DNA of 64,000 nucleotides from Escherichia coli (GTDB lineage: Bacteria > Pseudomonadota > Gammaproteobacteria > Enterobacterales > Enterobacteriaceae), in the NCBI RefSeq assembly GCF_048403405.1, contig NZ_CP183129.1; one strand, written 5' to 3'. This document shows positions 11,704 through 18,942 of the stretch, in pieces. A program made the position numbers and the translations under genes. The stretch's first letter is position 1. Every line of letters begins with the position of its first letter. Below the pieces are notes generated by a model that ran no database searches, had not been told where the DNA came from, and saw only the letters and a list, made by a program, of their open reading frames with translations.

Positions 11704-13317
11704 TCAATGCTTCACAATATACATAGTCCGACTGTACGCCACATCTTCCGGGTTATTAATGGGATAACCTTTCAGCCACGGCTTGATTAATCGTCCATTG
11801 GTATATTGATAAATTGGTGCAATCGGTGCTTGCTCCATGAGGATTTTTTCTGCCGTATTGTAATCGGCATTACGCGCTTTAACGGTATTTTCCGTTGATG
11901 CCTGGGCCAGTACTTTGTCGTATGCCGGATTGTTAAAGCGTGAAATATTCCCTGAATGCGTTGACGTTAACAACGTAAGGAAAGTGGAGGGTTCATTATA
12001 ATCCCCTACCCATGAGGCGCGGATAACATCAAAATTGCCGGTGTTACGGCTATCGATATAGGTTTTCCATTCCTGATTCTGCAATTTAACATCTACGCCA
12101 AGGTTCTTTTTCCACATCGATGCTACAGCAATCGCAATTTTTTGATGGTTTTCTGAAGTGTTATACAAAAGCGTCAGCTTCAGCGGTTTTTGCGGACCAT
12201 AACCAGCTGCGCTCAACAAAGTTTTTGCCTGCGCATTCAGTTCTTCCTGACTCATTTGTTCAAACGGCGAAGGCTCCGGCGTAAAACCGGCAGTAACATC
12301 TGGTGTAAAATGCCACGCTGGCTTTTCCCCCGTCCCCAACACTTTTTCGGTCATCAGGCGGCGATCTATCGTCATACTTAATGCCAGGCGAACACGCTGA
12401 TCGGCCGTCGGCCCTTTTTGCGTGTTAAACGCATAATAATAGGTCCCGAGCTGCGGCGGCGTATAAACCTGCCCCGGAATATCCTTCAACAGCTTCTGAT
12501 ACATATTTTTCGGGAAGGATTCGGTGATATCAATATCCCCCGCGAGATAACGCTTAGTGGCTGCGGATTCCTGATTAATTGGCAGGAAGGTCACTTTTTG
12601 CAGTACCGTTTTGGCGTTATCCCAATAATGGGTATTCGGCACCACGACCAGTTTTTCATTGACTATGCGCTCTTTAAGAACATAAGCGCCATTGCCGATC
12701 AGATTTCCGGGTTTCGTCCACTCTTTACTGCTTTCTACGTTGGCTTTTTGCACTGGGAAGAAGGCAAAGTTAGCGGTTAAATTCACAAACCACGGCAACG
12801 GTTTATCAAGCTGGATTTTCAAAGTATGGGCATCAACTGCGGTGACGCCAAGCTGGTCAGGCGTGGCTTTACCATCAATAATCGCCTGTGCGTTGTTAAT
12901 TCCCGCCAGCGCGGCAAACCATGCAAATGGCGACAATGTTTTTGGGTCCACCAGACGTTGCCAGCTGTAGACAAAATCTTGCGCCGTTACCGGTGTGCCA
13001 TCCGCCCATTTTGCGTTATCGCGCAGGGTAAAAGTCCAGATACGGTTGTCATTACTTTTCCACTGAGTCGCAACGCCGGGGACAATCTCCCCTTTCTCGT
13101 TCTGATTCACCAGTCCTTCAAACAGATCGCGAATGACCTGAATCTCCGGCAGGCCCACGGCTTTAGCGGGATCCAGAGACGCTGGCTCATCTTTAATGTG
13201 GCGCACCAGCTCCTGCTTCTCTGCCAGTACTGTGCCGCTCGGAACTTCAGCAGCATACGAAAGAGAAATGCTGCTGACCAACAGCGCACAACACGTGACT
13301 GAAACAGAGTGCTTCAT
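11704..13317 (-). CDS. mppA: Periplasmic murein tripeptide-binding protein (OppA paralogue, SBP family 5)
   Basis: ORF 11704..13338; start taken at MKHSVSV (537 aa) with signal peptide. Confidence 0.88.
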   Translation of the reverse strand: MKHSVSVTCCALLVSSISLSYAAEVPSGTVLAEKQELVRHIKDEPASLDPAKAVGLPEIQVIRDLFEGLVNQNEKGEIVPGVATQWKSNDNRIWTFTLRDNAKWADGTPVTAQDFVYSWQRLVDPKTLSPFAWFAALAGINNAQAIIDGKATPDQLGVTAVDAHTLKIQLDKPLPWFVNLTANFAFFPVQKANVESSKEWTKPGNLIGNGAYVLKERIVNEKLVVVPNTHYWDNAKTVLQKVTFLPINQESAATKRYLAGDIDITESFPKNMYQKLLKDIPGQVYTPPQLGTYYYAFNTQKGPTADQRVRLALSMTIDRRLMTEKVLGTGEKPAWHFTPDVTAGFTPEPSPFEQMSQEELNAQAKTLLSAAGYGPQKPLKLTLLYNTSENHQKIAIAVASMWKKNLGVDVKLQNQEWKTYIDSRNTGNFDVIRASWVGDYNEPSTFLTLLTSTHSGNISRFNNPAYDKVLAQASTENTVKARNADYNTAEKILMEQAPIAPIYQYTNGRLIKPWLKGYPINNPEDVAYSRTMYIVKH

Positions 13318-13374
13318 AAGTTTCCCTCTAACCGACATTAAAATTGATGCGTAATTATTTGTTTCGCCTTAAAG

Positions 13375-13404
13375 AAATGCAAACAACTTCCATCAAAAAA
13401 GTGA
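13375..13404 (+). repeat. 30-bp direct repeat, copy 1 (AAATGCAAACAACTTCCATCAAAAAAGTGA)
   Basis: Identical 30-mer recurs at 16486..16515 in the same orientation. Confidence 0.95.
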
Positions 13405-13653
13405 CAAAGGAAGCATCAAATGTTTTAAGTATCAATATATCAAATCAGATTTAGTGTAAATAATAGTCTCCAAAATGCGGTAAAGCACATAGAACTCCGA
13501 ACACTACGTTCGGGCTTCGCACGTTCAAACCCGTTTTCGGTATCATAATCAGCATCTGTCGCCATTGTACGAAGAATAAAAAATGACCAAAACGTTGAAA
13601 GGAACTGAGAATACGTTAAGAGAAGAATTAAATTAATGTATCAGCAAGTAGTG

Positions 13654-14553
13654 CTAAACAGCACCTTTATACTTCAGCCTATCTATAAATAATGAGAATG
13701 CCGAGCCAGCATGTCGACGGTGTGGATAGTACAGGTGATAACCGGGTAAATCTGGTGTGAATTTATCCAAAACACGTATCAGTTTTTTTTCTTTAATAGC
13801 CCGCTCAACTTGATCATAAGGTAGATACGCCAATCCATGCCCATCAATTGCAGCATCAATGATCAGGTCTATCGTATTCAGTAAAAGCTGACCTTCCATG
13901 CGAACACGAACTTCACGTCCACCGCGTATTAATCTCCAGCGATTTGCTGTACCCGATGTGGGAAGATACAAATTAATTGCCTGATGATCTATTAATTGTG
14001 ACACTGACGTTGGAGCACTTCGACGAGAAAAATAATCCGGTGAGCCAACAATAGCCATTGGTATATCTGGCCCGATTCGAATGGCGATCATATCTTTATC
14101 CATCTCCCCACCCAGACGGACGCCTGCATCAAAACGTTCAGAAACGACATCGGTCAAACCATAATCAATGGTAAGCTGGATATCAATTTCAGGATGCGAT
14201 TTCAGGAATGTGCGCATAGCTGGTAACAATATCGTTTTTGCTGCATGTTCTACAGTAGTAATACGTATTGTCCCGGATGGGCGGTTCTGCAGATCGCTCA
14301 GGGATGTCAGGGCAGAATCTATGTCATGCAACATAGGGCCAAGAACAGACAAAAGATGCTCGCCCGCTTCAGTGGGTACAACGCTGCGCGTGGTTCGCGT
14401 CAGAAGCCGCAATCCCAATCGTTCTTCTATACGGCGCACTATCTGGCTTAAAGCTGACTGCGCCATGCTCAGGCGGGCTGCTGCGCGAGTGAAGCTACGC
14501 TCCTCTGCAACGACGACAAACGCCATCAGATCAGCGATTTCTTCACGCTTCAT
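13654..14553 (-). CDS. pgrR: LysR-family regulator PgrR (YcjZ)
   Basis: 299-aa ORF, N-terminal LysR HTH, divergent from ycjY. Confidence 0.85.
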   Translation of the reverse strand: MKREEIADLMAFVVVAEERSFTRAAARLSMAQSALSQIVRRIEERLGLRLLTRTTRSVVPTEAGEHLLSVLGPMLHDIDSALTSLSDLQNRPSGTIRITTVEHAAKTILLPAMRTFLKSHPEIDIQLTIDYGLTDVVSERFDAGVRLGGEMDKDMIAIRIGPDIPMAIVGSPDYFSRRSAPTSVSQLIDHQAINLYLPTSGTANRWRLIRGGREVRVRMEGQLLLNTIDLIIDAAIDGHGLAYLPYDQVERAIKEKKLIRVLDKFTPDLPGYHLYYPHRRHAGSAFSLFIDRLKYKGAV

Positions 14554-14690
14554 TCAGTATCTCCATACAATCTATTAATCATTTAAATGATAGGTCTAAT
14601 CATAATTTAGGGTCTAATCAACTTAATGATCAATATCTATAGTGATATCACCAACCGTCAAAACGAACCGACAACTCCATGAGGAACGGA

Positions 14691-15611
14691 ATGATGAATA
14701 ATAAAGTCAGCTTCACTAACAGCAATAATCCAACCATCTCTTTGTCTGCAGTGATCTATTTCCCTCCAAAATTTGATGAAATCCGTCAGTATCCGGCAAT
14801 TGTGGTATCTCACCCAGGTGGGGGCGTTAAAGAGCAAACGGCTGGAACCTATGCCGAAAAACTGGCGGAAAAGGGATTTGTCACTATTGCTTATGACGCA
14901 TCTTATCAAGGTGAAAGCGGCGGCGAGCCGCGTCAGTTAGAAAACCCATACATTCGTACTGAAGACGTCAGTGCCGTGATTGATTACCTGACAACGCTTT
15001 CTTATGTCGACAATACCCGAATTGGTGCGATGGGAATTTGTGCCGGTGCAGGATATACAGCCAATGCTGCAATTCAGGATCGCCGCATCAAGGCCATCGG
15101 TACTGTTAGTGCGGTCAATATTGGTTCGATGTTCCGTAATGGTTGGGAAAACAATGTGAAATCTATTGATGCCCTACCATACGTTGACGCGGGTTCAAAC
15201 GCCCGAACCAGCGATATTAGTAGCGGAGAATACGCCACTATGCCACTGGCACCAATGAAGGAGTCCGATGCGCCGAACGAAGAACTGCGTCAGGCCTGGG
15301 AGTATTACCACACCCCTCGCGCGCAGTATCCAACAGCACCGGGTTACGCTACTTTGCGCAGCCTTAACCAGATTATTACCTATGATGCTTACCATATGGC
15401 GGAAGTGTACCTGACTCAGCCGATACAGATTGTGGCGGGCAGCCAGGCAGGGAGCAAATGGATGAGTGACGACCTGTACGATCGAGCATCAAGCCAGGAT
15501 AAACGCTATCACATTGTTGAAGGCGCAAACCATATGGATCTTTATGACGGCAAAGTCTATGTGGCTGAAGCAATTTCAGTATTAGCGCCGTTCTTTGAGG
15601 AAACTCTGTAA
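14691..15611 (+). CDS. ycjY: Alpha/beta hydrolase (dienelactone hydrolase-like) YcjY
   Basis: ORF 14679..15611; start placed at the second ATG (14691), which follows a GAGGA Shine-Dalgarno. Confidence 0.8.
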   Translation: MMNNKVSFTNSNNPTISLSAVIYFPPKFDEIRQYPAIVVSHPGGGVKEQTAGTYAEKLAEKGFVTIAYDASYQGESGGEPRQLENPYIRTEDVSAVIDYLTTLSYVDNTRIGAMGICAGAGYTANAAIQDRRIKAIGTVSAVNIGSMFRNGWENNVKSIDALPYVDAGSNARTSDISSGEYATMPLAPMKESDAPNEELRQAWEYYHTPRAQYPTAPGYATLRSLNQIITYDAYHMAEVYLTQPIQIVAGSQAGSKWMSDDLYDRASSQDKRYHIVEGANHMDLYDGKVYVAEAISVLAPFFEETL

Positions 15612-15685
15612 TGAAACATATTCAAATCCGCAATAGTGATATGGCCTGGCATATTACTGCCAATAATCTGGGAAAAGTTTCATGA
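15611..15685 (+). CDS. 24-aa micro-ORF (YmjD-like) coupled between ycjY and ymjC
   Basis: ATG overlaps the ycjY stop (TAATG) and its TGA overlaps the ymjC ATG (ATGA). Below the ORF-track size cutoff; coding status unproven. Confidence 0.35.
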   Translation: MKHIQIRNSDMAWHITANNLGKVS

Positions 15686-16320
15686 AAAATGTACTGATTC
15701 TTGGTGCTGGCGGTCAGATAGCCCGCCATGTGATTAATCAACTGGCAGATAAACAAACCATTAAACAAACTTTATTTGCCCGTCAGCCAGCAAAAATCCA
15801 CAAACCCTATCCCACTAATAGCAAGATTATTATGGGGGATGTACTGAATCATGCAGCACTGAAGCAGGCCATGCAGGGACAGGATGTTGTGTATGCCAAC
15901 CTTACGGGGGAAGATTTAGATATTCAGGCAAATTCAGTGATCGCTGCGATGAAAGCCGGTGATGTTAAACGTCTGATCTTTGTTCTTTCCCTCGGTATTT
16001 ATGATGAAGTTCCAGGAAAATTTGGCGAATGGAATAATGCAGTTATTGGTGAGCCCCTAAAACCATTCCGCAGGGCTGCGGATGCAATTGAGGCTTCTGG
16101 ACTGGAATATACAATTCTTCGCCCTGCCTGGCTGACTGATGAAGATATTATTGATTATGAGCTTACCTCACGCAATGAACCATTCAAAGGTACGATCGTA
16201 TCACGTAAGAGTGTCGCTGCATTAATTACAGATATCATCGATAAACCTGAGAAACACATTGGTGAGAATATAGGCATCAATCAACCCGGGACTGATGGTG
16301 ATAAGCCATTCTTCATGTAA
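15682..16320 (+). CDS. ymjC: NAD(P)-binding Rossmann-fold protein (NmrA/atypical SDR-like), YmjC-type
   Basis: 212-aa intact ORF with N-terminal GAGGQIA glycine-rich motif. Confidence 0.75.
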   Translation: MKNVLILGAGGQIARHVINQLADKQTIKQTLFARQPAKIHKPYPTNSKIIMGDVLNHAALKQAMQGQDVVYANLTGEDLDIQANSVIAAMKAGDVKRLIFVLSLGIYDEVPGKFGEWNNAVIGEPLKPFRRAADAIEASGLEYTILRPAWLTDEDIIDYELTSRNEPFKGTIVSRKSVAALITDIIDKPEKHIGENIGINQPGTDGDKPFFM

Positions 16321-16338
16321 ATCAATTATATAGCTACC

Positions 16339-16370
16339 ATCGTACTGTACTATGTGCAGTACGATTTATT
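16339..16370 (+). terminator. Intrinsic terminator downstream of ymjC
   Basis: Perfect 9-bp stem ATCGTACTG-N9-CAGTACGAT followed by TTATT. Confidence 0.6.
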
Positions 16371-16485
16371 AAACTTATTAAGGTGAACTGATCAATCAGA
16401 TGCGATTAACATGTGTAGAACCAGTAAGAATAAAATACGCCATGTATATAACATTACGACAATTCTAATATCTGCACATCAATGA

Positions 16486-16515
16486 AAATGCAAACAACTT
16501 CCATCAAAAAAGTGA
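16486..16515 (+). repeat. 30-bp direct repeat, copy 2
   Basis: Exact match to 13375..13404, about 96-125 bp upstream of mpaA. Confidence 0.95.
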
Positions 16516-16610
16516 TACAAGATCGATAACATAGCGTTGAAGAAAAGGATTTGATAATCCGCAAAATTTGCACAACACTGCCTGTAATACTTCCTGAACC
16601 AGAGACGATC

Positions 16611-17313
16611 ATGACCGTAACTCGCCCACGCGCCGAACGCGGCGCATTTCCGCCCGGAACAGAACATTACGGACGTTCATTATTGGGCGCGCCGTTAATC
16701 TGGTTTCCGGCCCCTGCAGCCAGTCACGAAAGTGGTTTGATTCTGGCTGGCACTCACGGTGATGAAAACTCTTCGGTCGTCACGCTCTCCTGTGCTCTGC
16801 GGACGTTGACACCGTCTTTGCGCCGCCATCATGTGGTGCTGTGTGTGAATCCTGACGGCTGCCAGTTGGGGTTACGGGCCAATGCTAATGGTGTGGATTT
16901 AAACAGAAACTTTCCGGCGGCGAACTGGAAGGAAGGTGAAACCGTTTATCGCTGGAACAGCGCCGCTGAAGAACGTGATGTCGTATTGCTGACAGGTGAC
17001 AAACCTGGCTCCGAACCTGAAACCCAGGCGCTGTGCCAGCTTATACACCGCATTCAACCCGCCTGGGTGGTCTCATTCCACGATCCGCTGGCCTGTATTG
17101 AAGATCCCAGACACAGCGAATTAGGCGAATGGCTGGCCCAGGCGTTTGAATTGCCTCTGGTAACCAGCGTCGGTTATGAAACGCCTGGCTCTTTCGGCAG
17201 TTGGTGTGCAGATCTCAACTTGCATTGCATCACCGCAGAGTTTCCGCCCATCTCCTCCGACGAAGCCAGCGAAAAATATCTCTTTGCGATGGCAAACTTG
17301 CTGCGCTGGCATC

Positions 17314-17339
<26 letters not shown>
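16611..17339 (+). CDS. mpaA: Murein peptide amidase A (zinc carboxypeptidase-like)
   Basis: ORF 16551..17339; start at MTVTRPRAERG (242 aa); HGDE zinc motif (GTHGDENSS). Confidence 0.85.
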
Positions 17340-18904: not shown

Positions 18905-18908
18905 GTTA

Positions 18909-18942
18909 ATATGCCTGATGGTGTTGCACCATCAGGCATATT
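18909..18942. terminator. Bidirectional terminator between convergent tpx and tyrR
   Basis: Near-perfect palindrome ATATGCCTGATGGTG-ttg-CACCATCAGGCATAT with A/T-rich flanks. Confidence 0.7.

Follow-up and report, generated by a model that had tools for sequence, protein, structure and literature searches.

The 30 bp sequence AAATGCAAACAACTTCCATCAAAAAAGTGA, present twice in the 64,000 nt window of Escherichia coli DNA (contig NZ_CP183129.1) that forms the whole of the stretch analysed here, is very probably a duplication of target DNA flanking a horizontally acquired cassette. The repeat is read here as a scar left where horizontally acquired DNA split the divergent promoter region of mppA and mpaA and duplicated its centre, rather than as the operator of a regulator. 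The insertion itself is ordinary genome history. A duplication of 30 bp is an unusual footprint where no mobility gene can be recognised, and is worth recording.

Exact matches to the 30-mer are located at 13375–13404 (copy 1, the mppA-proximal half of the duplication) and at 16486–16515 (copy 2, the mpaA-proximal half), both on the + strand and with no third site in the 64 kb window, which bears out the two identical, same-orientation copies described in an earlier note on this DNA. At up to 3 mismatches no further matches were found in the window, nor were any found in 100 shuffles. When the surroundings of the two copies are compared without gaps, the similarity reaches 37 nt at 92% before stopping sharply on either side. 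Gene assignments are based on the RefSeq annotation of strain 4621, which is 100% identical. The start codon of mppA ends at 13317 and mpaA starts at 16611, and the distances given previously, 58–87 nt from mppA for copy 1 and 96–125 nt from mpaA for copy 2, are therefore right. The bracketed genes are also as named before, being pgrR on the − strand and ycjY and a short-chain oxidoreductase (SDR) gene on the + strand; the last of these, named ymjC in the earlier note, is the full-length, intact form of the K-12 ymjC/ymjD.

Membership of a dispersed repeat family, which the earlier note had regarded as an argument against a locus-specific role, is excluded across 5,426 E. coli genomes. REP/BIME, ERIC and MITE-type families are likewise ruled out, as the 30-mer is found in no more than two places per genome, all of them at the mppA–mpaA locus. 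The predicted folding energy of the 30-mer is no better than that of shuffles on either strand, and an Rfam scan of 13000–17000 returned nothing above threshold, the sole match (E = 0.21) being within pgrR. With no Rfam match and no structure, the reading of the 30-mer as an RNA element was rejected.

The ancestral neighbours of the site are mppA on the left, encoding the murein tripeptide binding protein (11704–13317, − strand), and mpaA on the right, encoding the murein tripeptide amidase (16611–17339, + strand), the former placed by the annotation of strain 4621 and the latter by annotation, each with a tblastn map. In 76 other Enterobacteriaceae these are divergent neighbours, separated by a spacer of 176–203 bp that contains one copy of the 30-mer. 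These 76 spacers are from species-representative genomes, with E. albertii, E. whittamii, Citrobacter, Enterobacter, Kluyvera and Raoultella among them. The spacer is 182 bp in Escherichia, and the same empty site, made up of mppA, the 182 bp spacer with its one 30-mer copy, and mpaA, is present in 174 of 5,418 complete E. coli genomes. The arithmetic is exact. The empty spacer is 57 + 30 + 95 = 182 bp, to which occupation adds 3,111 bp, made up of a cassette of 3,081 bp and a second copy of the 30-mer. The earlier note had suggested looking for relatives that are without the module and have a single repeat copy; the 174 E. coli genomes and every outgroup examined are of this kind. Its alternative reading of the repeats as the footprint of an insertion that delivered the 3.1 kb module is strongly supported by these single-copy empty sites in E. 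coli and in the outgroups. The flanks of the ST648-type empty alleles are identical to those of occupied alleles, a state that either precise excision or homologous exchange with an empty allele would give.

The inserted cassette starts directly after copy 1 with a non-coding left end of 249 bp (13405–13653; 36% G+C), which is without homology to the version found on Klebsiella plasmids. This is followed by pgrR (ycjZ), annotated as a LysR-type regulator gene (13654–14553, − strand), and by the divergent pgrR–ycjY spacer (14554–14690), the region in which PgrR binding has been reported and which is unrelated in sequence to the 30-mer. Beyond this are ycjY, annotated as an alpha/beta hydrolase gene (14691–15611, + strand), and the NmrA-like SDR oxidoreductase gene (15682–16320, + strand), which is intact in the window strain and truncated to ymjC/ymjD in K-12-type strains. 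The right end of the cassette (16321–16485; 165 bp, 32% G+C) contains a hairpin with a 12 bp stem after the SDR gene (16339–16365, + strand; RNA fold −16.6 kcal/mol, z = −3.1). This is a possible terminator, although it was not called in the terminator scan, its T run being too short.

Several natural alleles of the cassette differ by deletion. A second hydrolase gene follows ycjY in O157-type strains and in Klebsiella and has been deleted in the window strain; it is present in 1,283 E. coli genomes, and is annotated as frameshifted in one O157 record that was read. The SDR gene is truncated in 2,293 E. coli genomes. The K-12-type deletion ends flush with copy 2 at the junction and takes with it the hairpin that separates the SDR gene from mpaA, and the S87-type deletion ends 146 nt to the left of copy 2. 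Four natural allele classes are found: the empty site, the four-gene type (O157), the window type and the K-12 type. In the cassette, a LysR/hydrolase/hydrolase/SDR operon survives as a fragment that is decaying.

The G+C content of the cassette is 43.9%, compared with 50.9% for the window and 54–55% for mpaA and ycjG. The same gene set is found at 79% nucleotide identity on conjugative Klebsiella plasmids and on Klebsiella and Salmonella chromosomes, where the copies are in unrelated contexts and without the 30-mer; none of the cassette-bearing loci of other genera contains it. PgrR has homologues of 88–90% identity in Klebsiella, Raoultella, Kluyvera, Salmonella and others. Outside E. coli, the regulator homologue adjoins hydrolase, SDR or old-yellow-enzyme genes, with no visible murein link. 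These comparisons support a foreign origin of the cassette.

No donor was found that has the 249 bp left and 165 bp right ends of the cassette. A plasmid vehicle was considered and rejected, in that the E. coli "plasmid" matches are chromosome-sized or chromosome-derived records carrying mpaA-ycjG-tpx-tyrR, and the true Klebsiella plasmid copies are only 79% identical and without the 30-mer. A 28 nt pair in pKGB1a was considered as a target duplication. This is a hairpin-like motif, GTCCGCTATGAGCGA, which is also present in chromosomes of Klebsiella and Salmonella, on the downstream side of the LysR gene, and is therefore not a target duplication. In O157 records, a 75 nt stretch of the cassette left end is annotated as a queH fragment. 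Its 47 aa translation matches only E. coli and Shigella fragments, and no NCBIfam model even at E = 10; as the annotation is unsupported and gives no donor, it was rejected as a donor pointer. One transfer of the cassette is documented, from E. coli to Escherichia sp. E1V33, and took place via ordinary homologous flanks, with the right switch 26–46 nt beyond copy 2. For E1V33, Campbell-type integration of a circle sharing the 30-mer only was rejected, since E. coli-type bases reach 26 nt beyond copy 2.

Carrying the predicted −35 hexamer of mppA, the 30-mer is cis-regulatory DNA in origin. The predicted σ70 promoter of mppA (13354–13382, − strand) has a −10 hexamer AATAAT at 13359–13354, a 17 nt spacer, and a −35 hexamer TTGCAT at 13382–13377, which lies inside copy 1. 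The two hexamers have 9 of 12 consensus matches in a consensus scan, and both are in the most conserved blocks of the 76 spacers, with a majority fraction of 0.8–0.99. The assignment of the mppA promoter is a prediction from consensus matching and conservation. Across the 76 empty-site spacers, the mean conservation is 0.80 within the 30-mer and 0.665 outside it. Both AATGCAAAC and AAAnTTGAT are conserved across Enterobacteriaceae. To the right of copy 2 is the ancestral mpaA-proximal control region (16516–16610, + strand), defined by alignment of the 76 empty-site spacers, with conserved blocks GAAAAGGATTTGATAAT (16542–16558) and TTTGCACAACACTGC (16567–16581). The segment within the ancestral 182 bp spacer is like other divergent promoter regions in being positioned between divergent, functionally linked genes and in carrying the predicted −35 of one of them. 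Unlike these, the shared region in E. coli is split and its centre is duplicated.

It is possible, though doubtful, that both copies have been selected as working cis elements. Copy 1 would then be the −35 and upstream part of the mppA promoter and copy 2 an activating or repressing site of the mpaA promoter, whose regulator would also bind the GAAA..TTGAT block. This is compatible with an origin by insertion, from which it differs only in the present-day function of copy 2. The conservation of the two motifs across the family is in keeping with such a role, as are the similar GAAA-N-TTGAT block 40 nt nearer mpaA and the sparing of copy 2 by all natural deletions examined (K-12 type, S87 type). 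However, constraint is not strict over the full length of either copy, as copy 2 varies among E. coli lineages (G5A; GG or AT) and copy 1 of O157 has an indel. In addition, no promoter-like site was called upstream of mpaA in the scan, there is no known regulator, and K-12 mpaA is reported to be in the ycjY operon (PMC5934670).

The two copies are not usually identical in E. coli. Copy 1 reads ..CCATC.. in nearly all E. coli, and copy 2 usually has the ancestral ..CCGGC..; this GG reading is shared by copy 2 of most E. coli, every empty site and every Escherichia outgroup. In the window strain copy 2 is the same as copy 1. The exact AT version of the 30-mer is present in 4,932 of 5,426 complete E. 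coli genomes at 4,992 places, and there are therefore approximately 60 genomes with two exact copies. The GG version is present exactly in 3,714 E. coli genomes. Copy 2 of K-12 has 2 differences, while copy 2 of O157 and of IHE3034 has 3, including G5A. Between the window and the collinear B2 strain IHE3034 there are 82 differences in 6 kb, of which 3 are in copy 2, all of them towards the sequence of copy 1. Perfect identity is a lineage-specific feature; given the AT of copy 1 and the GG of copy 2 in most E. coli, copy 2 in the minor lineage of the window has probably been homogenised to copy 1 by gene conversion, an event that would be recorded by three sites only. If the copies began as two identical GG copies, the change of copy 1 from GG to AT required two adjacent substitutions with the other 28 positions unchanged in 4,932 genomes. 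Such a pattern is odd, and may indicate that a variant copy came in with the foreign DNA.

The course of events begins from divergent mppA and mpaA, 182 bp apart in Escherichia, with a single copy of the segment. Part of a LysR-regulated hydrolase/hydrolase/SDR operon, approximately 3–4 kb long, was then inserted directly to the right of this segment in the lineage of E. coli, leaving the segment on both sides of the insert; these two steps are shown by the comparisons, and the later ones are proposed. The duplicated segment would be the centre of the control region that both genes share, with the predicted mppA −35 at the left end and AAAnTTGAT, a second conserved motif, at the right. The DNA directly upstream of each gene would thereby have stayed complete over 87 bp (mppA) and 125 bp (mpaA), which is the probable reason for the insertion having been tolerated and having spread. 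The duplication itself may have been made through repair of a staggered break, or else through recombination with an incoming molecule that bore its own copy of the segment. The copies would then have drifted apart, copy 1 having AT and copy 2 retaining the ancestral GG, before copy 2 in the window lineage was converted to copy 1. At present the repeats may be the substrates through which the cassette is now and then precisely lost, and the boundaries for its exchange between lineages.

Transposon target-site duplications share with this locus the host direct repeats around the insert, the single copy in the empty site, and a foreign insert of lower G+C. Such duplications are usually 2–15 bp. 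At 30 bp with sharp edges, the present one is outside the typical range of transposase staggers and, to our knowledge, is far longer than any known transposase makes. It also differs in that the insert is a metabolic operon fragment with its own regulator. No transposase, integrase or terminal inverted repeats were found at the cassette ends in the annotation, the ORF lists or the repeat comparison; the end segments contain short ORFs only, and no inverted repeat pairs both ends.

That the 30-mers are instead attL/attR-like cores of a site-specific integration, with the cassette being the remnant of an integrative element or having been moved in trans, is improbable. In integrative elements, the element's own copy of the target restores the function that was interrupted. 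The imperfect copies (AT versus GG), the complete upstream regions of both genes and the precise empty alleles are all features shared with attL/attR cores, as are direct repeats flanking an insert with a single copy in the empty site. The AT/GG pattern would fit attP and attB differing at two positions, with the crossover in the first 17 nt. The flanks of the ST648-type empty alleles are as expected after precise excision, and the K-12-type deletion ends exactly at the junction. However, there is no integrase or recombinase gene, or remnant of one, in or beside the cassette, nor are there other element genes, and the insert lies in a promoter spacer, not in a tRNA or at a gene end. The 30-mer is without the internal inverted repeats that core sites usually have, the cassette in other genomes is without this sequence or comparable target repeats, and the documented transfer between lineages, into E1V33, used homologous recombination in ordinary flanks. 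It is also improbable that the edges of the 30-mer mark where an unrecognised site-specific process with a 30 bp stagger cleaves DNA or exchanges strands. This process would have inserted the cassette and later made the K-12-type deletion, and would mediate precise loss of the cassette. If true, the repeat would be the fossil of a new cassette mobility targeting a promoter spacer.

The repeat had also been proposed to be a shared PgrR element, both mppA and mpaA being described as reported PgrR targets. This is correct for mpaA, through the ycjY operon, and incorrect for mppA, which is absent from the published PgrR regulon of ycjY-ymjDC-mpaA, ycjG and ycjXF-tyrR; mpaA is included only as the last gene of ycjY-ymjDC-mpaA (PMC5934670). 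Binding of PgrR has been reported in the pgrR–ycjY spacer (PMC10505187, PMC5934670), and the PgrR SELEX list contains ycjY/ycjZ and ten other loci, with neither 30-mer site among them (PMC5934670). There is no T-N11-A dyad in either copy, and the best ungapped match of the 30-mer to the pgrR–ycjY spacer is 16/30, with common words of 6-mers at most. The 30-mer does not co-occur with PgrR, being conserved also where a species or strain has no cassette at this locus; its conservation in species lacking the module there makes it older than the module.

On these grounds, a shared PgrR element is unsupported and it is very unlikely that the 30-mer is an operator through which PgrR co-regulates mppA and mpaA. 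The copies are upstream of peptidoglycan-recycling genes and flank pgrR, and PgrR is reported to lower mpaA expression (PMC9928106), as might be expected of such an operator. Against this, the 30-mer is conserved across the 76 species that have no cassette at this locus, and in most E. coli the two copies are not identical. The sole likeness to LysR operators, with their T-N11-A boxes, is the location upstream of genes linked to the reported regulon; unlike them, the 30-mer has neither a dyad nor a listed SELEX peak, and it predates the arrival of the regulator.

With the repeat read as an insertion scar, PgrR is reframed, in that the "regulator of peptidoglycan recycling" and the hydrolase and SDR genes form a foreign, decaying cassette. 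As the cassette is foreign and its homologues elsewhere have no visible murein link, mpaA of K-12 probably came under PgrR control by accident, through the position at which the cassette landed. Loss of the SDR–mpaA hairpin by the K-12-type deletion may reinforce this control. Accidental capture of this kind predicts that regulation of murein-peptide catabolism is strain-dependent.

The possibility that the cassette is ancestral and that the single-copy state reflects repeated deletion between the repeats is effectively refuted by the outgroup distribution: although recombination between 30 bp direct repeats would yield exactly the empty site, and the ST648-type empty alleles resemble recent derivatives of occupied alleles, precise loss would be needed in more than 70 species of at least 15 genera, all with a collinear, conserved spacer of 176–203 bp, and the cassette is foreign in G+C and is also found elsewhere in unrelated contexts. 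Deletion between the repeats may still explain some of the 174 empty sites in E. coli.

The integrase of strain MFDS1019527 is that of a prophage inserted within mppA, which is a different site. In Salmonella arizonae and diarizonae, the same spacer contains an insertion without a flanking duplication.

The 30 bp direct repeat described in the earlier note around the pgrR-ycjY-SDR module is real, with exact copies of AAATGCAAACAACTTCCATCAAAAAAGTGA at 13375–13404 and 16486–16515, both on the + strand. Copy 1 is next to mppA (− strand, start codon boundary at 13317) and copy 2 is next to mpaA (+ strand, from 16611); the distances from the repeat to these genes given in the note are correct according to the gene map. 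Between the copies are pgrR (13654–14553, −), ycjY (14691–15611, +) and an intact SDR gene (15682–16320, +), the full-length form of K-12 ymjC/ymjD, and ycjG (−) is located beyond mpaA. Similarity between the copies reaches 37 nt at 92% and ends abruptly on either side. No third site was found in the window when up to 3 mismatches were allowed, and none in 100 shuffles. Strain 4621 has 100% identity to the window over 6 kb.

An empty arrangement was found in 174 of 5,418 complete E. coli genomes, using a junction query from a module-less strain. Here mppA and mpaA lie directly beside each other in divergent orientation, with one copy of the 30-mer in the 182 bp between them. A scan for MpaA in one genome per bacterial species gave 80 loci, and mapping of the neighbouring genes identified the same arrangement in E. 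albertii, E. whittamii, three further non-coli Escherichia, Citrobacter, Enterobacter, Lelliottia, Leclercia, Kluyvera, Raoultella, Kosakonia, Pluralibacter, Trabulsiella and Yokenella, with 76 empty-type spacers in total (176–203 bp). Relatives with a single repeat copy and no module, which the earlier note had proposed as a check, therefore exist both within and outside E. coli. From the mppA start to the segment is 57 bp and from the segment to the mpaA start 95 bp, which with the 30 bp segment makes 182 bp, and the occupied locus is an exact fit to 182 bp plus 3,111 bp. The wide occurrence of empty spacers and this exact arithmetic indicate that the empty site is the ancestral state and that the module is an insertion, along with which the second 30-mer arose. 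This bears out the suggestion that the repeat is a duplication or insertion footprint, and the feature is accounted for by a duplication of ancestral promoter DNA that accompanied the insertion, its copies being homogenised in the window lineage. Footprints of this type are already known; this example stands out by its length and its bearing on the origin of PgrR control.

The most conserved blocks in the alignment of ancestral spacers are GTAATTATTTGTTT, AATGCAAAC, AAAnTTGAT, GAAACnATTTGAT and TTTGCACAACACTGC. On the mppA strand, GTAATTATTTGTTT and AATGCAAAC give TTGCAT and AATAAT with a 17 nt spacer, the sole promoter-like site called near mppA. Because the conserved blocks give this pair, the left end of the 30-mer is predicted to carry the mppA −35 hexamer. 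The right end has the AAAnTTGAT block, which is located in a T-rich tract upstream of the predicted hexamer. Mean conservation is 0.80 within the 30-mer, compared with 0.665 in the rest of the spacer. The insertion point is directly after the 30 bp segment and, since a copy of it stands on either side of the insert, mppA has kept 87 bp and mpaA 125 bp of original upstream DNA, which we infer to be the reason that the insertion was tolerated. Copy 2 might still act on mpaA as a present-day element. Two blocks upstream of mpaA at 16542–16581, GAAAAGGATTTGATAAT and TTTGCACAACACTGC, rank with the best-conserved stretches of the spacer across 76 Enterobacteriaceae; no σ70-like promoter was called in these blocks.

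Perfect identity between the two copies is an exception among E. coli. The AT version of the 30-mer (..CCATC..) has exact matches in 4,932 genomes, at only 4,992 places, therefore approximately 60 genomes have two exact copies. The GG version (..CCGGC..), exact in 3,714 genomes, is carried by all four empty-site E. coli genomes read, by most copy 2 sequences and by three of five non-coli Escherichia outgroups, the remaining two differing by one base there. There are 82 differences across 6 kb between the window and the collinear B2 strain IHE3034, three of which are inside copy 2, and each of these makes copy 2 of the window match copy 1. The simplest reading of this comparison is that copy 2 took on the sequence of copy 1 through a short gene conversion in the window lineage. 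The AT in copy 1 may be due to two adjacent substitutions that were fixed once the duplication existed. Alternatively, the incoming DNA may have carried its own slightly different copy; a crossover within the first 17 nt would then leave precisely the observed AT in copy 1 and the GG in copy 2.

The module has a G+C content of 43.9%, against 50.9% for the window and 54–55% for mpaA and ycjG. In related gene sets, a LysR regulator diverges from two alpha/beta hydrolases plus an NmrA-like SDR, and these are often followed by genes for a short-chain dehydrogenase and for an old-yellow-enzyme reductase. With 79% nucleotide identity and 88–90% PgrR protein identity, such sets are found on conjugative Klebsiella plasmids and on chromosomal contigs, where the PgrR homologues are assigned to Klebsiella sp. 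R390 and Salmonella enterica. The PgrR homologue list, which covers homologue names rather than contexts, further includes Raoultella, Kluyvera, Citrobacter and Enterobacter. The contexts read (Klebsiella plasmids, Klebsiella and Salmonella contigs) are unlike each other, and none has the 30-mer, or mppA or mpaA as a neighbour. On K. variicola plasmid pKGB1a (L089), a 28 nt imperfect direct repeat (3878–3905 and 7597–7624) brackets a homologous cassette. It includes a hairpin-like motif, GTCCGCTATGAGCGA, that is also present downstream of the LysR gene on Klebsiella and Salmonella chromosomes, and is more probably a small repeated element than a target duplication.

The cassette is decaying in E. 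coli. In O157-type alleles, ycjY and the SDR gene are separated by a second alpha/beta hydrolase gene (L003 5111–6041), which is kept in 1,283 E. coli genomes and annotated as frameshifted in the single O157 record read. The window type lacks this gene and has a 70 bp spacer (15612–15681) in its place. On top of this loss, 2,293 of 5,426 E. coli genomes, including K-12, have a 665 bp deletion, equivalent to 15820–16485 of the window and observed at 5321/5322 in locus record L002, that truncates the SDR gene into the K-12 ymjC/ymjD pseudogene. Strain S87 is an example of further cassette deletions. In O157 records, RefSeq places a 25-codon 'epoxyqueuosine reductase QueH' fragment at the left end of the cassette (window 13481–13555; L003 2982–3056), for which protein search and NCBIfam gave no support.

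The cassette has neither a transposase nor an integrase and lacks terminal inverted repeats, and 30 bp exceeds the transposase staggers known to us. The duplication may have been generated by fill-in of a staggered break or by recombination with a copy of the segment on the incoming DNA. A site-specific process at the junction is kept at a small probability, because the right endpoint of the K-12-type deletion is 0–1 nt from the left edge of copy 2, the original insertion junction, a coincidence with a chance of approximately 1–2% if endpoints are random within the spacer.

PgrR reportedly binds the promoter region of its own gene, with negative autoregulation (PMC10505187), and reportedly reduces mpaA expression when cells grow in rich medium (PMC9928106). 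Its listed regulon is ycjG, ycjXF-tyrR and ycjY-ymjDC-mpaA (PMC5934670). Of the two genes that the earlier note took to be reported targets, mpaA is therefore listed, as part of the ycjY operon, but mppA is absent from this regulon as well as from the SELEX list, which names ycjY/ycjZ and ten other loci, and there is no listed peak at either 30-mer location (PMC5934670). The proposal that the 30-mer is a shared PgrR operator is out as far as sequence analysis goes, since it has nothing in common with the pgrR-ycjY spacer beyond 6-mers, contains no T-N11-A dyad and is conserved in species that lack the cassette. Control of mpaA by PgrR seems to follow from the position at which the cassette inserted. 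In the window type, the SDR gene is separated from copy 2 by a 165 bp spacer with a strong hairpin (16339–16365, −16.6 kcal/mol, z = −3.1). The K-12-type deletion takes out both, leaving the ancestral 125 bp of mpaA directly behind the truncated SDR gene, and this layout fits with the operon reported in K-12. Regulation of mpaA may differ in strains of other allele classes.

ST648-type empty alleles have flanks identical to those of occupied alleles, compatible with precise loss through recombination between the repeats. In the E200086- and MFDS-type empty alleles, the mppA leader is diverged and resembles Escherichia sp. MOD1-EC7003; these alleles look older or imported. Escherichia sp. E1V33, with flanks that group with E. 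whittamii and have 86–90% identity to E. coli, has a K-12-type cassette (L011 4373–7001). Mismatches to K-12 are approximately 2% in the cassette genes versus 10–13% in the flanks, and the switch from recipient to E. coli sequence is inside copy 1 on the left and 26–46 nt beyond copy 2 on the right. These switch positions indicate an inter-species homologous import with crossovers hugging the heterology; acquisition by integration through the 30-mer only is contradicted by the position of the right-hand switch.

The empty-site strain MFDS1019527 (L005 1–6066) has a prophage inside mppA, approximately 66 nt into the gene, with a tyrosine integrase, NinB and a replicative helicase. In Salmonella enterica subsp. 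arizonae (L028 3848–7000) and diarizonae (L031 3562–7000), the mppA-mpaA spacer contains another insert, of 3.1–3.4 kb, encoding a CdtB protein (NF011787, E = 1e-113) flanked by two lipoprotein-like ORFs that look like cdtA and cdtC. No duplication flanks this different insert, and the mppA-proximal promoter blocks are replaced there; the spacer has therefore been struck independently. Elsewhere in the window, a perfect 16 bp inverted repeat with a 3 nt loop (18908–18942) is located directly after tpx, where tpx and tyrR converge, and probably acts as a bidirectional terminator.
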